NCBI GenBank assembly: GCA_035490435.1
Contig: DATHEF010000027.1
Location: 20,193 to 84,192, forward strand
DNA length: 64,000 nt
From: Thermoanaerobaculia bacterium
Lineage (GTDB): Bacteria > Acidobacteriota > Thermoanaerobaculia > Multivoradales > UBA5704
Reading direction: 5' to 3'
A program made the position numbers and the translations under genes. Of this stretch, positions 16,317 through 23,426 are shown piece by piece (the stretch's first letter is position 1; every line of letters begins with the position of its first letter). The notes beneath the pieces are model-generated. The model made no database searches. It saw only the letters and a list, made by a program, of their open reading frames with translations, and was not told the DNA's origin.

Positions 16317-18023
16317 TCACTTCGGCAGCCGCCGCCGCACACCCGCCAATAGCGACTCCACCTCCTCGATCCGGGCCAGCTTCGCCAGGATCAGGTAGGA
16401 CAGTCCGTAGGTCCCCAGCACCAGAAGGGCCGTGAAGATGGGCCGGAGTGGCGGCAGCAGCCACCAGACCAGGGCTCCAGGCAGCGCCGCCGCGAGCGCC
16501 AGCAGCGCCATTCGGGCGTCTTCCCGCCAGGGGAGCTCGAAATCCGGCAGCCTTCTCCGTAGCGCGGCGCGGAGTTGGTAAAGCTCCATCCAGGCGCCGA
16601 AGCCGGAGGCGAGGGCGAGCCCGACAGAGCCCAGGTAGCGTGTCTGCCCGGGCAGCGGCCCGACCAGCGACGAGAGCTGGAAGCGGTCGAGGAAAAACAT
16701 CAGGGGCACTGCCACCAGCACCGAGGTCCCCACCCGCATCGCCGCGATGCGGGCCGGCGAGCGGGTGTCGCCGAGGGCGTAGAAGGTGTTCTGCAGCAGG
16801 CGCGAGGTGGTGGTGGCGAGGATGCCCGTCGAGTAGCCGCAGAGCACCAGGTAGACCAGCCAGTTAGCCGCCAGGTTGAAGTTGCCTCCGCGGTAGAAGC
16901 CGATCACCAGGAAGCCGAAGGCGAGATAGCCGATCACGGTGGGGATGTTCAGGAAGGCGACGTAGCGCAGCGCGCGCCGGACGCGGGCGAGCAGCGCCGG
17001 CGCCATCCCCTCGCCGCGCAGGCGCGACATCTCCGGCAGCTCCGAGGCCGCCACCGAGATGCCGAAGAGGCTGATCGGCAACAGATAGAAAATCTGCGCG
17101 AAGCGGTCCGCCGAGGCGGCGCCGGTCGCCAGCAGGGTGGCGAGGAAGAGGTCGATAAAGCCGGCGACTTGCACCACCCCCCGGCCGGCCACCGCCGGCC
17201 ACCACGCCGCCAGCGCCTGCCGCACCCCCGGCACGCTGAGCGAGAGCGACGGCCGGAAGCCGCGCAGGATGCCCAGTACCGTGGGGAGTTGTACGGCGAA
17301 CTGCAGCAGGCCGCCCGCGAGGGCGCCCCAGCAGGCCACCTTGAAGAGCTGGACCTGTCCGGAGGCCCCGCGGGTGCCGGCGAGCCAGTGGCTGGCGATC
17401 AGCAACGCGGCGACGATCGCCGAGTTCCAGAGCACCGGCGCGAAGTACGGCAGGAAGAAGCGGCGATTGCTGTTGAGGATCGCCAGCGCCCAGACCGACA
17501 GCACGAGCAGGCCGGCCATCGGGAAGAGGATGCGAACGCCGGTCACCGTCAGGGCGAAGCGGTCCACAGCCATCGTGCCCGCGGCCACGGCGGCGGCGTC
17601 GTGCCGGAAGCCGGGCGCCAGCGCGAAGACGATCGGCTTGGCGAGCAGGATGCCGAGCAGGGCGAAAGCCGCCGCCGCCGCCGCCATCAGGCCGAAGATG
17701 GCGCCGGCGAACTTTCCCGCCTCCTCGTCCCTCCCCTCCTCCAGCAACCCGCTGTAGATGGGGATGAACGACGCCGAGAGCACCCCCTCTCCCAGCAGGT
17801 TCTGAATGATGTTGGGGACCCGCATGGCGGCGGTCAGCGCGTCCTGGTGGGGACCGACGCCGAGATAGCGGGCAAAGGCCCCCTCGCGCACGAACCCCAT
17901 CAGCCGGCTAAGCACGATGCCGGCGAAAACGCTGGCCGCTCCCGCTCGCGAGCGGGGGCGGCGCAGCGGCGCCTGGGGCGGCTCCGACGGGGTCGGGTCG
18001 GCGCTCTCTATAGGCTCGCTCAC
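16317..18023 (-). CDS. murJ: Lipid II flippase MurJ
   Basis: N-terminal LSRLMGFVREGAFARYLGVGPHQDALTAAMRVPNIIQNLLGEGVLSASFIPIY matches the MurJ N-terminus; 14 TM helices. Probable GTG start at 18023 overlapping the upstream TGA (GTGA). The 1206-aa six-frame ORF is an artefactual 5' extension. Confidence 0.8.
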   Translation of the reverse strand: MSEPIESADPTPSEPPQAPLRRPRSRAGAASVFAGIVLSRLMGFVREGAFARYLGVGPHQDALTAAMRVPNIIQNLLGEGVLSASFIPIYSGLLEEGRDEEAGKFAGAIFGLMAAAAAAFALLGILLAKPIVFALAPGFRHDAAAVAAGTMAVDRFALTVTGVRILFPMAGLLVLSVWALAILNSNRRFFLPYFAPVLWNSAIVAALLIASHWLAGTRGASGQVQLFKVACWGALAGGLLQFAVQLPTVLGILRGFRPSLSLSVPGVRQALAAWWPAVAGRGVVQVAGFIDLFLATLLATGAASADRFAQIFYLLPISLFGISVAASELPEMSRLRGEGMAPALLARVRRALRYVAFLNIPTVIGYLAFGFLVIGFYRGGNFNLAANWLVYLVLCGYSTGILATTTSRLLQNTFYALGDTRSPARIAAMRVGTSVLVAVPLMFFLDRFQLSSLVGPLPGQTRYLGSVGLALASGFGAWMELYQLRAALRRRLPDFELPWREDARMALLALAAALPGALVWWLLPPLRPIFTALLVLGTYGLSYLILAKLARIEEVESLLAGVRRRLPK

Positions 18024-20890
18024 CGCGGCAGGTCGTTCCAGTTCAACAGGGCGTTGTAGACGAACCGGAAGTCGGCGAGGTTCAGGTAACGGTGGAGCGG
18101 GTCGAAGGCGTAGAGGATCACCCGCCCCTTGCCGGTGGGGACATCGAGGATCGCCGGCTTGCCGTCGAGCTCCTCCTTCCCGCGGGCGAGCCCGGAGAGC
18201 ACGAAACGGTCGTCCTTCTTCTCCGCTTTCGGCTTCGCCGCCGGAGCGGCCGCCGGAGCGTCGAGATCCTCCACCTCGATCCCGGAGGCGGAGCCCGGCT
18301 TTTTGTCCCCCTCCTCGTCCTCCTCCCCGTCGGGCTTCCTGGTGCCGAACTGCAGCACCACCCGGGCTCGATCCACCTTCGGCACGTCGAACACCGGGCC
18401 GTTGCCGCGGAAGACCTGGGTCAGCTCCTCGTAGCCGTAGACCAGCGGATGCTCCGGCCGCACCACCTTGACCCGCACCTCCGATCCCGGCGTATTGGCG
18501 CCCAGCCGCGTGCTGGAGACCCCGCGCACGATCCCGCCGTCGACCGGCAGCGTCCCGCCGCTGCCGAGCGCGATCAGCACGCCGCCGCCACGGACGAACT
18601 TGTCCAGATTGAGCAGCCCCTCGAAACCCATGCCGCCGGTGATGTCCTCCGAGCCGTCGGGGATCCCCTGGCTGGGGAACTCCGGGGTCTTGGTGTAGGC
18701 GAGCGGACCGTACTTGGGATCGATGCCGTGCACGAGATCGGAGAGCTCCCCGTAGGTCCTGGGGTAGAGGACGACGTCGAAACGCTCGGCGAGGTTCCCC
18801 CGCTTGAGGTCGTCGTCGTTGATCAGCGTGTAGGGGACCTTGGCGCGGTCGAGGGTGTAGCGCACCCAGCCGGCGTCCTGGGTGTCGATCCAGTTGTGGA
18901 GCACCGCCAGGCGCGGCAGGTCGACGAGATGGCGCCGGACCTCCGGCGCCGAGGCGACCGCCGCGAACGACAGGCCGGTCTGACGCGCGACCTCCCCCAC
19001 CGCCTCGCGCGGCGCCTGGACGATCCAGCTCCCCGGCGGATAGGTGACGCCCCCGGCGGTGAAGGCGGCCTCCGCCACGTCCACTTGGTTGGTCCCCAGA
19101 ATCACGCGTCCCGCCAGCAGCGCCGTCTGCCCGGTGTCGCGCAACAGGAAAAGCTCGCCGGCGCCGTCGATCCTGCCGGTGGGGACGACGTCGGCCGCCA
19201 CCCGCTCCATGGCGCCGTCGAGGATCTTCTTGTCCGCCACCGCCTCCGCCTTGACGCCGTAGAGCAGCGGCCAGGTCCAGGCCACGTCGTCGTAGGGCGG
19301 GTTCGGCTCGTCCGCCGGGAACTTCTGCTCTTCGAGGAGGTCGTTGGCCATGCGGCCATAGGGCTGGTCCAGCCGCACCACGTAGGTCCCCGCGCCCCAA
19401 GTCCGGGCGCCGGCCTTCGCCTCGGCGGTCAGCCGGTGAACCTCGATCCGGTGCTGGCGGAGCTGGTTGACCAGATAGGCCAGCCGGGCCGGATCGCGCT
19501 GATCGGCCGGAAAGACCCAGGCGTAGGGGGCCGTGGTCTTCCCCTTCACGAGCGCGTGGTCCCCCTTGGTCCAGAAATCCTCGAGCAGCTCCTCGCGATG
19601 GAGGGCGGCGTACTCGAGGGCCGAGAGGGCCCCCGCCTCCATGTAGTTGGTGTTGTTGCGCAGCGACCAGCGGAGCTTCTTCGCCGGCGGCGCCGGGCGG
19701 TACCACTGAACGTCGGTCACCGGCCGGCCCGCGAACTTCGCCCGCGAGAGGTCGCGGTCGAAGGTGCCGGCCGAGCCGTTGCCGAAGGTCTCGTAGAAAC
19801 GCCCTACCGAGTGATGGAGGTTGGCCACCGAGTTGAGATAGCCGGGCCACCAGCCGTCCCAGAAGGCCCAGGTGAAGATCCCCGGCAGACCCTGAGCGGA
19901 GAGGGCTCCGGCCTCGTGATAGCCGAATTGCGTCCACTCGCTGATCGTCACCGGATCGATCGCCCGGTTGTAGGGTCCGTAGCCGGTCATGATGTAGAGC
20001 AGCGGCAACGACTCGTGGAGGTCGTGCATCACCTGCGGATGGAACTCGTAGAAGGTCTCGTGGACGGCGCGGGTGAGCGCCTGGGTGACCTGCATGCCGT
20101 CGCGGTTGTTGTCGTGCAGCACGTAATGCCCCCAGTAGGGCGGGGACATGATCTCGTCGAGATCCTCGTAGGAGCCCTTGCGGTCGCGCAGGTGGCGGTA
20201 ATACCAGTCGACCTGCCGGTCGCGGCCGTCCGGCTCGGTGACCGGGGTGATCATGACGATCGTGTTCTTGCGGATCGCCTGGATCTCCGGCTTCTCCGAG
20301 ACCGCCAGCCGGTAGGCGAGCTCCATCAGCATCTCGGGGCTGCCGGTCTCGGTCGAGTGGAGGCCGCCGGTGAACCAGTAGAAGACCTTCCCCTCGGCGG
20401 CCAGCTTGCGGGCCTCCTCGCGCGGGGTGCGGCGGGGGTCGGCCAAGCGGGCGGTGACGTCCTTGTAGCGGTCGAGCGCCGCCAGGTTCTCAGGGTCCGA
20501 GACCAGGGCGACGATCATCTCGCGCCCCTCCTCGCTGGTGCCGATCACCTTGACCTGGACGCGGTCGGTCGCCCCGGCGAGGCGGCGGAAGTAGTCGTGA
20601 ACGTCCTTGACGCGCGACAGCTCGTCCGGCGCGCCGGCGAGATGCCCCAGCGCCTTGGTGGGCGACGGCACCGTCTCCGAGTCCGGCACGTAGGCGACCG
20701 ACTCGGGGAGGTACTCGGGAGCGGTCGTGTACTCCTTGATCTTCTCGACGCTCCCCGGTTCCGGTCGGTCGGGGGCCCAGGAGCCGGCGGCCGCGGGAGC
20801 CGCCATGGGAGCCGGGGGAGGCGTTTCCTGGGCGAAGACGGTGCTGGCGCAGAGAAGGGGGAGAAGGAAGATCACAGATCGGACGTTCAC
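18020..20890 (-). CDS. Secreted M14-family zinc carboxypeptidase (956 aa)
   Basis: Signal peptide; M14 zinc site FYWFTGGLHSTETGSPE (HxxE); length and domain order of large bacterial M14 peptidases. Confidence 0.8.
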   Translation of the reverse strand: MNVRSVIFLLPLLCASTVFAQETPPPAPMAAPAAAGSWAPDRPEPGSVEKIKEYTTAPEYLPESVAYVPDSETVPSPTKALGHLAGAPDELSRVKDVHDYFRRLAGATDRVQVKVIGTSEEGREMIVALVSDPENLAALDRYKDVTARLADPRRTPREEARKLAAEGKVFYWFTGGLHSTETGSPEMLMELAYRLAVSEKPEIQAIRKNTIVMITPVTEPDGRDRQVDWYYRHLRDRKGSYEDLDEIMSPPYWGHYVLHDNNRDGMQVTQALTRAVHETFYEFHPQVMHDLHESLPLLYIMTGYGPYNRAIDPVTISEWTQFGYHEAGALSAQGLPGIFTWAFWDGWWPGYLNSVANLHHSVGRFYETFGNGSAGTFDRDLSRAKFAGRPVTDVQWYRPAPPAKKLRWSLRNNTNYMEAGALSALEYAALHREELLEDFWTKGDHALVKGKTTAPYAWVFPADQRDPARLAYLVNQLRQHRIEVHRLTAEAKAGARTWGAGTYVVRLDQPYGRMANDLLEEQKFPADEPNPPYDDVAWTWPLLYGVKAEAVADKKILDGAMERVAADVVPTGRIDGAGELFLLRDTGQTALLAGRVILGTNQVDVAEAAFTAGGVTYPPGSWIVQAPREAVGEVARQTGLSFAAVASAPEVRRHLVDLPRLAVLHNWIDTQDAGWVRYTLDRAKVPYTLINDDDLKRGNLAERFDVVLYPRTYGELSDLVHGIDPKYGPLAYTKTPEFPSQGIPDGSEDITGGMGFEGLLNLDKFVRGGGVLIALGSGGTLPVDGGIVRGVSSTRLGANTPGSEVRVKVVRPEHPLVYGYEELTQVFRGNGPVFDVPKVDRARVVLQFGTRKPDGEEDEEGDKKPGSASGIEVEDLDAPAAAPAAKPKAEKKDDRFVLSGLARGKEELDGKPAILDVPTGKGRVILYAFDPLHRYLNLADFRFVYNALLNWNDLPR

Positions 20891-20951
20891 AGAGGGGTCT
20901 CCTTGGAAGGATTGCTACGATATCGGTTCCCGGACGGCGGGACAAGGCGGC

Positions 20952-20979
20952 TTGACGCTCTTGACTTGACACTCTTGAC
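20952..20979 (+). promoter_or_regulatory. Four closely spaced TTGAC pentamers (two CTCTTGAC direct repeats) upstream of the antitoxin gene: candidate operator/-35 cluster
   Basis: gCTTGACgCTCTTGACTTGACaCTCTTGACgg located 17-45 nt upstream of the antitoxin ATG at 20996. Confidence 0.45.
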
Positions 20980-20995
20980 GGACCACACTCATCCC

Positions 20996-21499
20996 ATGAC
21001 GCGAGCCCACGCCGCCGCCAAAGCCTTCGAGGAAGCCCTGGAGGAGTTCTCCCTTCCCGAGGATGCTCCTGAGCTCAAAAATCCGGAAGCCCTGGGGAGG
21101 CGAGCCGCCTTGCTGGCCGTGGCGGAGGCTTCCTGGGGTCAGGTGCTCGGCCCCTTGCTGGATGTCGAGCAGGCCCAGACCCTTCTCAACGTAAAGAGTC
21201 GGCAGGCCGTCAGCGACCTCGCGAAGAGAGGCCGCCTGCTGGCACTCGGCGGTACCGGAGGACGCAAGCTCTACCCGGCGTTCCAGTTCGGCCCCAGCGG
21301 CCGCCCACATCCCGAGGTCGCGAAGGTCCTTTCCATCTTCGACGGAGTCGTGGAGACGCCCTATACGATCGCCTCCTGGTTTGTCAGCCCTCAGGATCTT
21401 CTGGAGGGAGAAAATCCAGCGGCTTGGCTCCGGTCTCGACGTGATCCGGAAATGGTTTTCGAAGCTGCGAGGCGTGCGGCAGACAAACTGGCCCACTGA
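20996..21499 (+). CDS. Xre/MbcA/ParS-type antitoxin (N-terminal HTH + C-terminal DUF2384 toxin-binding domain)
   Basis: HTH-like QAQTLLNVKSRQAVSDLAKRGRL. The C-terminus WFVSPQDLLEGENPAAWLRSRRDPEMVFEAARRA fits the DUF2384 pattern (W..P...L.G..P...L). A RES gene follows immediately. Confidence 0.7.
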   Translation: MTRAHAAAKAFEEALEEFSLPEDAPELKNPEALGRRAALLAVAEASWGQVLGPLLDVEQAQTLLNVKSRQAVSDLAKRGRLLALGGTGGRKLYPAFQFGPSGRPHPEVAKVLSIFDGVVETPYTIASWFVSPQDLLEGENPAAWLRSRRDPEMVFEAARRAADKLAH

Positions 21500-22087
21500 C
21501 CCCTGAGCCCTCTCTCCTCCCCTCCACCCGATCTCCGGCGGTTCCCTCGCCGCGATCTGCCAAGCGGATTTCCGCTTTTCCGGATCCACCTCGCCCGCTT
21601 CGGGCCCTGGTGGTTCTCACGGAGCGGCTACGGCCGTTTCGATCTCCGTGGGCCGGACGGGGTGGGTACCTGCTACCTCGCGGAACAGCCAGAGGGCTGT
21701 TTTCTAGAGGTCTTCAGGGAATTTTCCACCATTCCCGAGACAGAGGTACAGATCCGGAATCTTGCGAAGATCGAGATGGAACGCCCTCTCTCACTCGCGG
21801 ACTGCACTACGGAAAGCGCGCGCGTCTGGGGCATCACGGCGGAGATCCATTCAAGCCCCGACTATAAGAAGACCCAGGATTGGGCGGCGGCGTTCGCCCG
21901 TGCGGGATTCGACGGGATCTGCTACCTCTTGCGACACGATCCGGCGCAGCGCCTGACAGGTATAGCGCTCTTCGGACCGGAAGGCTCACAGCCTGGTTTT
22001 CCCGTCGCTGCCAGCGAACCGATCGGAACCGACCTGCTCCAGCGTGTGGAGGATCGCTTCGGGATTCGTGTCAAGCAACCTCTCTGA
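21500..22087 (+). CDS. RES-domain toxin (ParT/MbcT-like); start codon not identifiable
   Basis: The frame is open from the antitoxin TGA and is the same frame. Encodes LFRIHLARFGPWWFSRSGYGRFD...GTCYLAEQPEGCFLEVF (RES Arg/Glu motifs). The first ATG/GTG/TTG in frame is the GTG at 21662, downstream of the conserved Arg (21635). Confidence 0.6.
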   Translation, partial: PLSPLSSPPPDLRRFPRRDLPSGFPLFRIHLARFGPWWFSRSGYGRFDLRGPDGVGTCYLAEQPEGCFLEVFREFSTIPETEVQIRNLAKIEMERPLSLADCTTESARVWGITAEIHSSPDYKKTQDWAAAFARAGFDGICYLLRHDPAQRLTGIALFGPEGSQPGFPVAASEPIGTDLLQRVEDRFGIRVKQPL

Positions 22088-22088
22088 C

Positions 22089-23426
22089 CTACCGTAACCG
22101 CACCACCACCACCGTCATATCGTCCGCCTGTTCCTGGTCCCCCTTGAAGTTCGAGAGGTCGCCCAGGATGGCGTCGCGGACCTCGCGGGCGGTGCGGCTG
22201 GCGGCGGCACGGGCGACGGCCCGCTGGAGGCGCGCGTCGCCGTAATCCTGATCCTGGTCGTTGCGGGCCTCCACCAAGCCGTCGGTGTAGAAGATCAGCA
22301 GGTCCCCGGGCGCGATGGGGTGCTTGACCAGCTCGTAGCTGGCGTTCAGGAAGGTGCCGAGAGGGGGCGCCCCCTCCCCCACCTCAGCGAAGCGGCCGGA
22401 GCGCGGATCGTAATGGAGCATCGGCGGATGGCCCGCGGTCACCAGGGTCACCGAGCCCTCCTCCCGGTTGATCACGGCGCAGAGCAGGGTGACGTAGGTC
22501 CGCTTGTCCGTGGTCCGCCGGACCATGTGGTTCAGACGGTCGAAAACCCCGAGCGGCGAAGCGAGATCCTCCTCCAGCAGGTAGAGGCAGCTCCGCACCC
22601 CCGAGAGCAGCAGCCCGCTCGCGAGGCCGTGCCCGGCCACGTCGCCGATCACCAGGACGAGCTGGGAGTCACTCAGCTTGAAGTACTCGTAGTAGTCGCC
22701 ACCCACCTCGGTCGCCGGGAGCGAGGCCGCGGCGAGGTCGATCCAGCTCAGTTGGGGCGCGGTCTGGGGGAGCATGCTGAGCTGGATCTTGCGCGCGTAG
22801 TCGATCTCCTCGCGCATCCGCAGCCGCTCGCGAGCTCGCGAGTACTCGCGGCGCCAGACGTTGAGGAACCGTTTGCGGTCGAGCTGGGAGATCCCCATGG
22901 CGGTCACCAGGCAGATCACGCTGATGATCGAGACCGCGATGACCGCGTCCTGGTCCGCTGGAACCGAGACCCGCCGCAGCCCCACCCATTCCAGGGGGAA
23001 GACCGCGGTCACCCAGAACACGGCGAACAGCATGAGGTGCTCGGAGACCCGCAGCCGGAAGGCCAGCAGCAGGAAGCAGACCAGGATGAACGGCACGTGC
23101 TCGCCGTTGTCGATGTAGCTGGTCGCGAGCTTGAGCACCACGATCTGGAAGAACAGGAAGACGAGCAGGATCTGGCGGAAGTTGCGGGCAAAGATCTCGC
23201 GGTCGCGCAGGATGAAGAGCGCCACGCAGGCCAGGGAGTCGGCGATGTAGATCGCGAGGCCGTAGCCGTCGTGCAGGGTCACCGAGGAGGCGATGCCGCC
23301 CAGGCAGAGGAGCGGCACCAGGGCCAGCAGCCAGCGGAAGGCGCGATAGTTGCGGGCGTCGAAGTGGCGCTGGACGGCGAGCGGCTCGGGCAGCAGCACG
23401 AGCTCGTCGAGGGTGGGGGCTTTCAT
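22089..23426 (-). CDS. Membrane-anchored PP2C-family Ser/Thr phosphatase (SpoIIE/RsbU-like)
   Basis: ~8 TM helices, then PPM motifs (GGDYYEY, VIGDVAGHG, DGL, DDMTVVVVRL). Confidence 0.8.
   Translation of the reverse strand: MKAPTLDELVLLPEPLAVQRHFDARNYRAFRWLLALVPLLCLGGIASSVTLHDGYGLAIYIADSLACVALFILRDREIFARNFRQILLVFLFFQIVVLKLATSYIDNGEHVPFILVCFLLLAFRLRVSEHLMLFAVFWVTAVFPLEWVGLRRVSVPADQDAVIAVSIISVICLVTAMGISQLDRKRFLNVWRREYSRARERLRMREEIDYARKIQLSMLPQTAPQLSWIDLAAASLPATEVGGDYYEYFKLSDSQLVLVIGDVAGHGLASGLLLSGVRSCLYLLEEDLASPLGVFDRLNHMVRRTTDKRTYVTLLCAVINREEGSVTLVTAGHPPMLHYDPRSGRFAEVGEGAPPLGTFLNASYELVKHPIAPGDLLIFYTDGLVEARNDQDQDYGDARLQRAVARAAASRTAREVRDAILGDLSNFKGDQEQADDMTVVVVRLR

Follow-up and report, generated by a model that had tools for sequence, protein, structure and literature searches.

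How is the toxin of a toxin-antitoxin (TA) pair translated when its reading frame offers no canonical start codon upstream of essential residues? The question is raised by a locus in the 64-kb stretch of Thermoanaerobaculia DNA analysed here (64,000 nucleotides of contig DATHEF010000027.1, hereafter the window), in which an antitoxin open reading frame (ORF) and a RES-domain toxin ORF lie in the same frame on the plus strand, with a single TGA between them. Read directly from the window sequence, the RES frame runs without a stop from 21500 as far as the TGA at 22085-22087, i.e. over 195 amino acids (aa), and translates as PLSPLSSPPPDLRRFPRRDLPSGFPLFRIH...GRFD.... The arginine of the GRFD motif is encoded by the CGT codon at 21635. 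The first canonical start, GTG at 21662-21664 (plus strand, codon 54 of the toxin), lies downstream of it, and the only in-frame NTG codons ahead of this GTG are CTG 21503 and CTG 21557. The sequence is thus as described in the first-pass annotation, which had offered three readings: a fused antitoxin-toxin made by TGA read-through, initiation at a CTG, or recent inactivation of the toxin by loss of its start. Our answer, to which we give a probability of about 75% as a whole, is that translation is initiated at the CUG at 21503 and that this initiation, probably coupled to translation of the antitoxin, keeps the toxin level low.

The start position of the RES toxin

A search of 5.8 billion proteins yielded 664 relatives of the RES open frame. 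Most of them are 190-196 aa long, cover 97% of the frame and begin with M/L/V-SPLS.PP.DL..FP; for the closest ones (73-96% identity) the annotated products are fragments, 137-141 aa long, that begin at an internal V, L or M. Orthologues were collected from relatives with a matching neighbourhood and from metagenome-assembled genomes (MAGs) of Thermoanaerobaculia and Acidobacteriota found by a genome scan, and a scan of metagenomes with the family alignment added 80 loci. The N-terminus of the homologues aligns residue for residue with L-SPLSSPPPDLRRFP of the window. CTG 21503 (21503-21505, plus strand), one codon past the antitoxin stop, is therefore the start position of the family, and it aligns with residue 1 (M, L or V) of the full-length homologues. 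The family start motif reads NTG AGC CCn CTn ("xSPL").

Start codons were counted in the 61 distinct loci that are aligned as far as residue 1. All 61 carry NTG in this column (27 CTG, 29 TTG and 5 GTG), and the codons CTC, CTT, CTA and TTA are never found. In the group to which the window belongs the column is CTG in 27 genes out of 27, whereas eight other conserved leucine columns of the same genes show CTG in 58 of 198 cases (about 29%). The third base of the start column is therefore constrained beyond what is needed to encode leucine. Of the two CTG codons previously considered as non-canonical starts, the first is thus retained; CTG 21557 was rejected, the codon being CTT, CTC or TTG in relatives.

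In 16 aligned CTG loci no ATG, GTG or TTG occurs anywhere from the preceding in-frame stop to the GRFD arginine. Orthologues all keep CCTGAGCCC, including the CTG; the few bases that separate the antitoxin stop from the CTG differ between loci both in sequence and in number, with indels. The ratio of nonsynonymous to synonymous substitution rates (dN/dS) is 0.03-0.35 over codons 2-25, i.e. from the CTG to the first RES strand (dS about 0.5-1.3), and 0.08-0.25 from codon 55 to the end (dS >1). In a neighbour-joining tree the window belongs to a single deep clade of CTG loci, over 20 in number and mostly from Thermoanaerobaculia, whose most distant members are about 55% identical to the window protein, and CTG occurs separately at least three times (L050/L066, L032 and L082) among TTG and GTG relatives. 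The same CTG, with the same missing canonical start, was found in independent assemblies from many samples. ATG at the toxin start was observed in two loci only, L056 and L019, both with a different N-terminal arrangement. The L019 sub-lineage (proteins P0014 and P0020, 202 aa) lies inside the CTG clade and has gained an upstream ATG through an apparent partial duplication of the N-terminus (MSPLVSPGN-LSASSLPPPP), with the internal CTG AGC retained. By these comparative criteria CTG 21503 is strongly supported as the toxin start, and the gene appears to belong to those initiated at a non-canonical CUG, since an intact ORF under selection has no canonical start upstream of its essential residues.

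The coding sequence proposed for the toxin (21503-22087, plus strand) comprises 194 codons plus the TGA. Its delimitation draws on the family alignment and the dN/dS values, and also on domain and structure comparisons. The Pfam RES profile (PF08808) matches residues 26-162 of the 195-aa frame with E=4e-16 and a score of 59.8 bits, above the gathering cut-off of 23.2, over profile positions 2-142 of 157. The AlphaFold2 (AF2) model has a predicted local distance difference test score (pLDDT) of 88 and a predicted template modelling score (pTM) of 0.86, with the N-terminal strands E16-19 and E24-30 confidently modelled. The best match of this model in the Protein Data Bank (PDB), searched with Foldseek, is the toxin MbcT (6fkg_B, E=1.7e-6, template modelling (TM) scores 0.65/0.69), and the top matches are all RES toxins: MbcT, NatT, VPA0770, the RES protein of Pseudomonas putida and ParT. 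At the sequence level, phmmer searches of the PDB with the toxin and with the antitoxin gave no matches, the toxin family profile gave only noise in the PDB, and NCBIfam holds no family for either protein; the link with MbcT came from the fold search. Numbered from the CTG, the residues R27 (codon at 21581), R45 (21635), Y58 (21674), E69 (21707) and S117 (21851) are invariant or at least 90% conserved in the family alignment. Compared by order and spacing, they parallel R27, R47, Y58, E69 and S126 of MbcT, in which R27A, R47A and Y58A each abolish toxicity (PMC6436930). Profile and model together support an MbcT-like RES toxin, as the first-pass annotation had proposed, which presumably degrades NAD+.

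The stop-start junction and the competing explanations

The antitoxin stop TGA is followed in the window by a 3-nt spacer, CCC (stop and spacer at 21497-21502, plus strand), and then by the CTG. Across the 25 CTG lineages used for spacing statistics, the CTG lies -4 to +18 nt (median 7) from the antitoxin stop, the sequence in between is variable, and the stop itself is TGA, TAA or TAG. Toxin and antitoxin are in frame in 13 of these lineages and out of frame in the other 12, with gaps of 1, 4, 5, 7, 8, 11, 13, 14, 16 or -4 nt. In some loci the antitoxin TGA and the toxin start share bases, forming CTGA in L082 and L085 and GTGA in L039 and L055. The window junction (21490-21510), CACTGAcc-CCCTGAgcc, resembles a small tandem duplication of an ancestral overlapping CTGA; the junctions of L066 (GCCGCTGA-GCCGCTGA-GCCC) and L068 (CACTGAGCC...GCTGAGCGCC) are duplication-like too. 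Tandem duplications could have turned an overlap into a short spacer. A terminator-like hairpin is located at 21490-21509 on the minus strand.

These junctions bear directly on the proposal that the antitoxin TGA must be read through or recoded for a full-length toxin to arise, which would then be an antitoxin-toxin fusion. The window itself has the layout that such a mechanism would use, with two in-frame ORFs, a single TGA between them and a C after it, and the in-frame arrangement is mildly over-represented among the CTG lineages (13/25 against one third expected; binomial p=0.04, ignoring kinship). Against this, toxin and antitoxin are out of frame in 12 lineages, all three stop codons are used, the spacer residues are not conserved, and the NTG fixed at codon 1, never CTC or CTT, would be left unexplained. 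RNA structure around the stop and start (21460-21560) is no better than in shuffled sequences (z=0.44), so that a stimulator of recoding or read-through is unlikely. TGA recoding, by an alternative code or as selenocysteine, was rejected, since in orthologues the antitoxin ends at the same place with TAA or TAG. On these comparisons, read-through cannot be the conserved route to the full-length toxin, and we consider an obligate fusion very unlikely. The third reading of the first-pass annotation fared no better. A toxin gene that lost its start by an ATG to CTG change, now a silent or decaying pseudogene beside an antitoxin left as an orphan regulator, was rejected as very unlikely. The canonical start is indeed missing, and in one orthologue (L003/L009) a 1-nt deletion shifts the frame and the C-terminus is altered. 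Against this, the ORF of the window is intact, dN/dS stays between 0.03 and 0.35 over the whole gene, N-terminus included, in lineages whose dS is near or above 1, all catalytic-type residues are kept, and the CTG is not only retained under purifying selection across a deep clade but constrained in its own third base.

A start at GTG 21662, giving a 141-aa RES fragment, is what automatic annotation provides for the window and the orthologous loci (137-141 aa), and such a fragment still matches the Pfam RES profile, although only from profile position 33 (E=1.5e-11). It would nevertheless lack R27 and R45, whose apparent MbcT counterparts are essential, together with two core beta-strands of the model; the 53 codons upstream are under purifying selection, and the position varies between V, L and M among orthologues, unlike a conserved start. 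We judged that this is not the real start of the gene, and initiation there is highly improbable. An error of sequencing or assembly that hides a true ATG or a frameshift has nothing in its favour except the unusual annotation; with an identical junction in independent MAGs and in metagenome contigs from many projects, and with CTG in 27 distinct sequences, it can practically be dismissed.

Some points do weigh against coupled CUG initiation at 21503. CUG is a very poor start codon in Escherichia coli, and we infer the coupling from the geometry of the junction alone. For the in-frame excess described above we found no explanation, and a minor share of read-through may occur at the window locus itself, where the stop stands in a UGA-C context. 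The deletion mentioned above (GATCTT-CAAGC) affects the N-terminal region of the toxin, at about position 2900 of L003, which is identical to L009 (NODE_1334, coverage 4x); the protein called there, P0009, has a divergent C-terminus. The copy at this locus may be in decay or may reflect a misassembly at low coverage, and in view of it some toxin copies may be decaying.

Antitoxin, operator and toxin dosage

The antitoxin gene (20996-21499, plus strand) runs from an ATG to the TGA at 21497-21499 and encodes 167 aa: an N-terminal helical region, a winged helix-turn-helix (HTH) resembling HTH_17 and Rv2175c (residues 54-94 approximately), and a C-terminal helical domain with faint similarity to the C-terminal domain of MbcA/ParS. 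The first-pass annotation had taken it for an Xre/DUF2384 protein. In Pfam the window antitoxin gives only a sub-threshold HTH_17 match (22.4 bits, cut-off 27), and PF09722 (Xre_MbcA_ParS_C, i.e. DUF2384) gave no match even at E<=10. Among 19 relatives, 5 weakly match PF09722 and PF23125 (best PF09722 E=0.006), and HTH_17 reaches E=2e-6 in one relative. Almost all of the 120 antitoxin homologues listed are without a precomputed Pfam domain; PF09722 is given for one, and NCBI applies the name DUF2384 to one. The antitoxin family profile retrieves Rv2175c from the PDB (2kfs, E=0.004), which is also the best Foldseek match of the AF2 model (pLDDT 85; E=9e-5), and the HTH superposes on that of BldC with a root mean square deviation of 1.0 A and 30% identity. 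The match of the model to MbcA (6fkg_C) is weak (E=0.015, TM 0.28/0.39). The HTH thus resembles HTH_17, Rv2175c and BldC rather than the cro/C1-type HTH of Xre, and of the original assignment only the faint MbcA/DUF2384 similarity stands. As far as profiles and model can tell, this is a RES-associated antitoxin whose DNA-binding domain is of HTH_17 type, not of Xre type, and its homology to the toxin-binding domain of MbcA/ParS is at most remote.

Upstream of the antitoxin, four TTGAC pentamers start at 20952, 20961, 20966 and 20975 (spacing 9-5-9). They form a probable operator at 20951-20979 (plus strand), built on a 14-nt tandem direct repeat, CTTGAC(G/A)CTCTTGA, present twice (20951-20978). 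The 15-mer pattern of the repeat is unique in the window, for a chance expectation of 0.24, and two or more matches occurred in none of 100 shuffles. We compared the region in 49 distinct loci and found the common layout cTTGAC-n4-TTGACTTGAC-n4-TTGAC-n3-5-[T/C]AnnnT-n5-7-ATG; 19 loci retain all four pentamers and a further 11 retain three of them, even where protein identity has fallen to about 45%. L052 carries seven TTGAC copies upstream. This conservation strongly supports the TTGAC repeats as the antitoxin operator, a function which had been guessed from the window. BldC binds arrays of direct repeats head-to-tail; the TTGAC direct repeats fit a BldC-like binding mode of this kind.

The second pentamer provides a candidate -35 hexamer, TTGACT (20961-20966, plus strand), as read from the sequence, 17 nt upstream of a candidate -10 element, CACACT (20984-20989, plus strand), which ends 6 nt before the ATG. 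In 48 of the 49 loci an element [T/C]AnnnT (TAGACT, TACGCT, TATGCT, GATAAT, TATAAT and others) lies within positions -16 to -5 relative to the start codon. A strict sigma-70 scan of 20700-22400 found no promoter, the -10 of the window matching at 3 positions of 6 only; the promoter is therefore proposed on its family-wide conservation alone. The antitoxin starts are not preceded by pairing of Shine-Dalgarno (SD) type (mean -1.3 kcal/mol), and 45 of the 47 antitoxins whose start codon was counted begin with ATG. With a -10-like element ending 5-7 nt before an almost universal ATG, and no SD, a leaderless antitoxin mRNA is likely, and we regard the antitoxin mRNA as probably leaderless or nearly so.

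In contrast to the ATG of the antitoxins, the toxins of the family start with CTG, TTG or GTG. The duplex energy upstream of the toxin start is -6 kcal/mol or lower in 1 of the 27 genes of the CTG group, i.e. there is no SD, versus 59% of the TTG group. An SD-like GGCGG is found upstream in 59% of the TTG loci and in none of the CTG clade; the weaker start codon is accompanied by the weaker ribosome-binding context. The TTG-start clade (L028, L042 and L054 for example, and including clusters named Actinomycetota by NCBI) has mostly a fixed 3-nt gap, TAA/TAG CGC TTG. In the CTG group the gap of -4 to +18 nt is within the range of termination-reinitiation, which works within about 20 nt (PMC10666635), and this fits coupling. 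CTG starts have been verified for hda and yfjD of E. coli (PMC3531124) and reported for an Rhs toxin (PMC7043789), and changing the GTG of res genes to ATG increases protein level and toxicity (PMC8065639).

Expression of the locus would most likely proceed as follows. Transcription of the antitoxin gene would depend on a promoter in which the four TTGAC repeats cover the -35 and the spacer; the HTH_17-type domain of the antitoxin would occupy these repeats as operator, and the mRNA would begin at or beside the antitoxin ATG. A ribosome terminating on the antitoxin ORF would reinitiate, without an SD, at the CUG 21503, 3 nt past the stop, and this CUG would presumably be decoded by initiator tRNA. 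The resulting 194-residue toxin would act by phosphorolysis of NAD+. The near-cognate start and the dependence on antitoxin translation would together make the toxin a small fixed fraction of the antitoxin output. A stronger version of this scheme extends to the whole lineage: the toxin would be made only by ribosomes just off the antitoxin, the leaderless mRNA loading 70S ribosomes at the antitoxin AUG and the SD-less CUG being reached by reinitiation, so that toxin is hard-wired as a tiny fraction, tuned by the first base of its start codon (C, T or G, almost never A). We propose this version tentatively, as a possibility on the doubtful side.

The surroundings agree with a TA module. Two small, adjacent, co-directional genes are separated by a 3-nt gap and preceded by a promoter-proximal repeat array, i.e. 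the layout of type II TA systems. Across the family the stop-to-start gap is -4 to +24 nt, and a gene of antitoxin type lies directly upstream of the RES gene, in the same orientation, in the window as well as in practically every related locus whose upstream sequence is long enough. The locus is a type II TA operon of a Thermoanaerobaculia-like (Acidobacteriota) genome. It is flanked by genes for an M14 peptidase (18020-20890, minus strand) and a SpoIIE/PP2C phosphatase (22089-23426, minus strand), and the gene order M14 peptidase, antitoxin, RES, SpoIIE phosphatase is common to the loci of three close relatives. Synteny is kept in orthologous genomes (L001-L004) at 74-97% toxin identity. The GC content is 63-65% in the module and 67-72% in the flanks. 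The module appears to be chromosomal and vertically inherited. Two entries of the ORF list, of 1206 and 1135 aa (16317-21499, on both strands), are high-GC artefacts; the second merely continues the antitoxin frame upstream, across the antisense strand of the peptidase gene.

Significance and relation to known systems

Bacteria very rarely use CUG as a start codon, and gene callers do not consider it; the toxin is therefore publicly annotated as a 137-141 aa fragment without its essential arginines, and annotation pipelines should permit CTG at stop-proximal positions in TA operons. With its CTG clade, its TTG and GTG sister clades and its ATG antitoxins, the family offers a natural example in which the choice of start codon would set the toxin:antitoxin ratio. 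It also defines a type of RES-associated antitoxin that is HTH_17/Rv2175c-like and whose gene has a conserved operator of direct repeats and a promoter that is probably leaderless. Our search of the literature found no paper on CTG-start RES toxins or on leaderless RES-Xre operons, an absence which is not proof of novelty. Weak starts as such are familiar in this family of toxins: the res genes of Photorhabdus luminescens, Mycobacterium tuberculosis, P. putida and Pseudomonas aeruginosa begin with GTG (PMC8065639; PMC6436930). The first-pass annotation had regarded the module as unusual for its type; this applies to the CTG, not to a weak start in general. The present locus adds CTG to the weak GTG start already known from res genes: it is a RES module in which an established principle is taken to a conserved CUG start, in combination with a non-Xre antitoxin and a direct-repeat operator.

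Among the closest characterised systems is MbcT-MbcA of M. tuberculosis (Rv1989c-Rv1990c), a RES-Xre NAD+ phosphorylase TA pair. The order, antitoxin first and RES second, is the same, and the toxins are alike in length and in fold, with the series R27/R4x/Y58/E69/S parallel by order and spacing; sequence similarity is too low to be detected by HMMER against the PDB. Both toxins have a weak non-ATG start, GUG in MbcT and the proposed CUG in the window, whereas the antitoxins differ: MbcA has an Xre-type HTH, and the 167-aa window antitoxin a winged HTH of HTH_17/Rv2175c type. The RES fold is likewise shared with the Xre-RES systems of P. putida (PrsT-like, 6gw6/9r35) and P. aeruginosa (PA14_51010/51020). 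In Xre-RES systems of this type, the level of the GTG-start toxin limits toxicity (PMC8065639), and they are autoregulated by binding of the antitoxin in the promoter (PMC12204516). The regulator of P. putida is described as binding palindromes, in contrast to the four direct TTGAC repeats in the promoter of the window family, and the Pseudomonas toxins start with GTG where the window toxin starts with a CTG lacking an SD. For the antitoxin, the best match by sequence profile and by fold is with Rv2175c (2kfs) and BldC-type HTH_17 proteins, which are neither known as antitoxins nor adjacent to RES genes, whereas the window antitoxin family always precedes a RES gene.

The start codon itself has its nearest parallels in hda and yfjD of E. 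coli and in the internal ORF of Salmonella Rhs-CT, which share with the window toxin, as interpreted here, a near-cognate CUG start, first recognised by conservation, and low expression; in Rhs-CT the CUG serves to express a toxin. Those are however single enterobacterial genes. In the family described here the CTG is fixed across a deep TA clade, with TTG and GTG taking its place in sister clades, and it is placed, without an SD, within a few nucleotides of an upstream stop.

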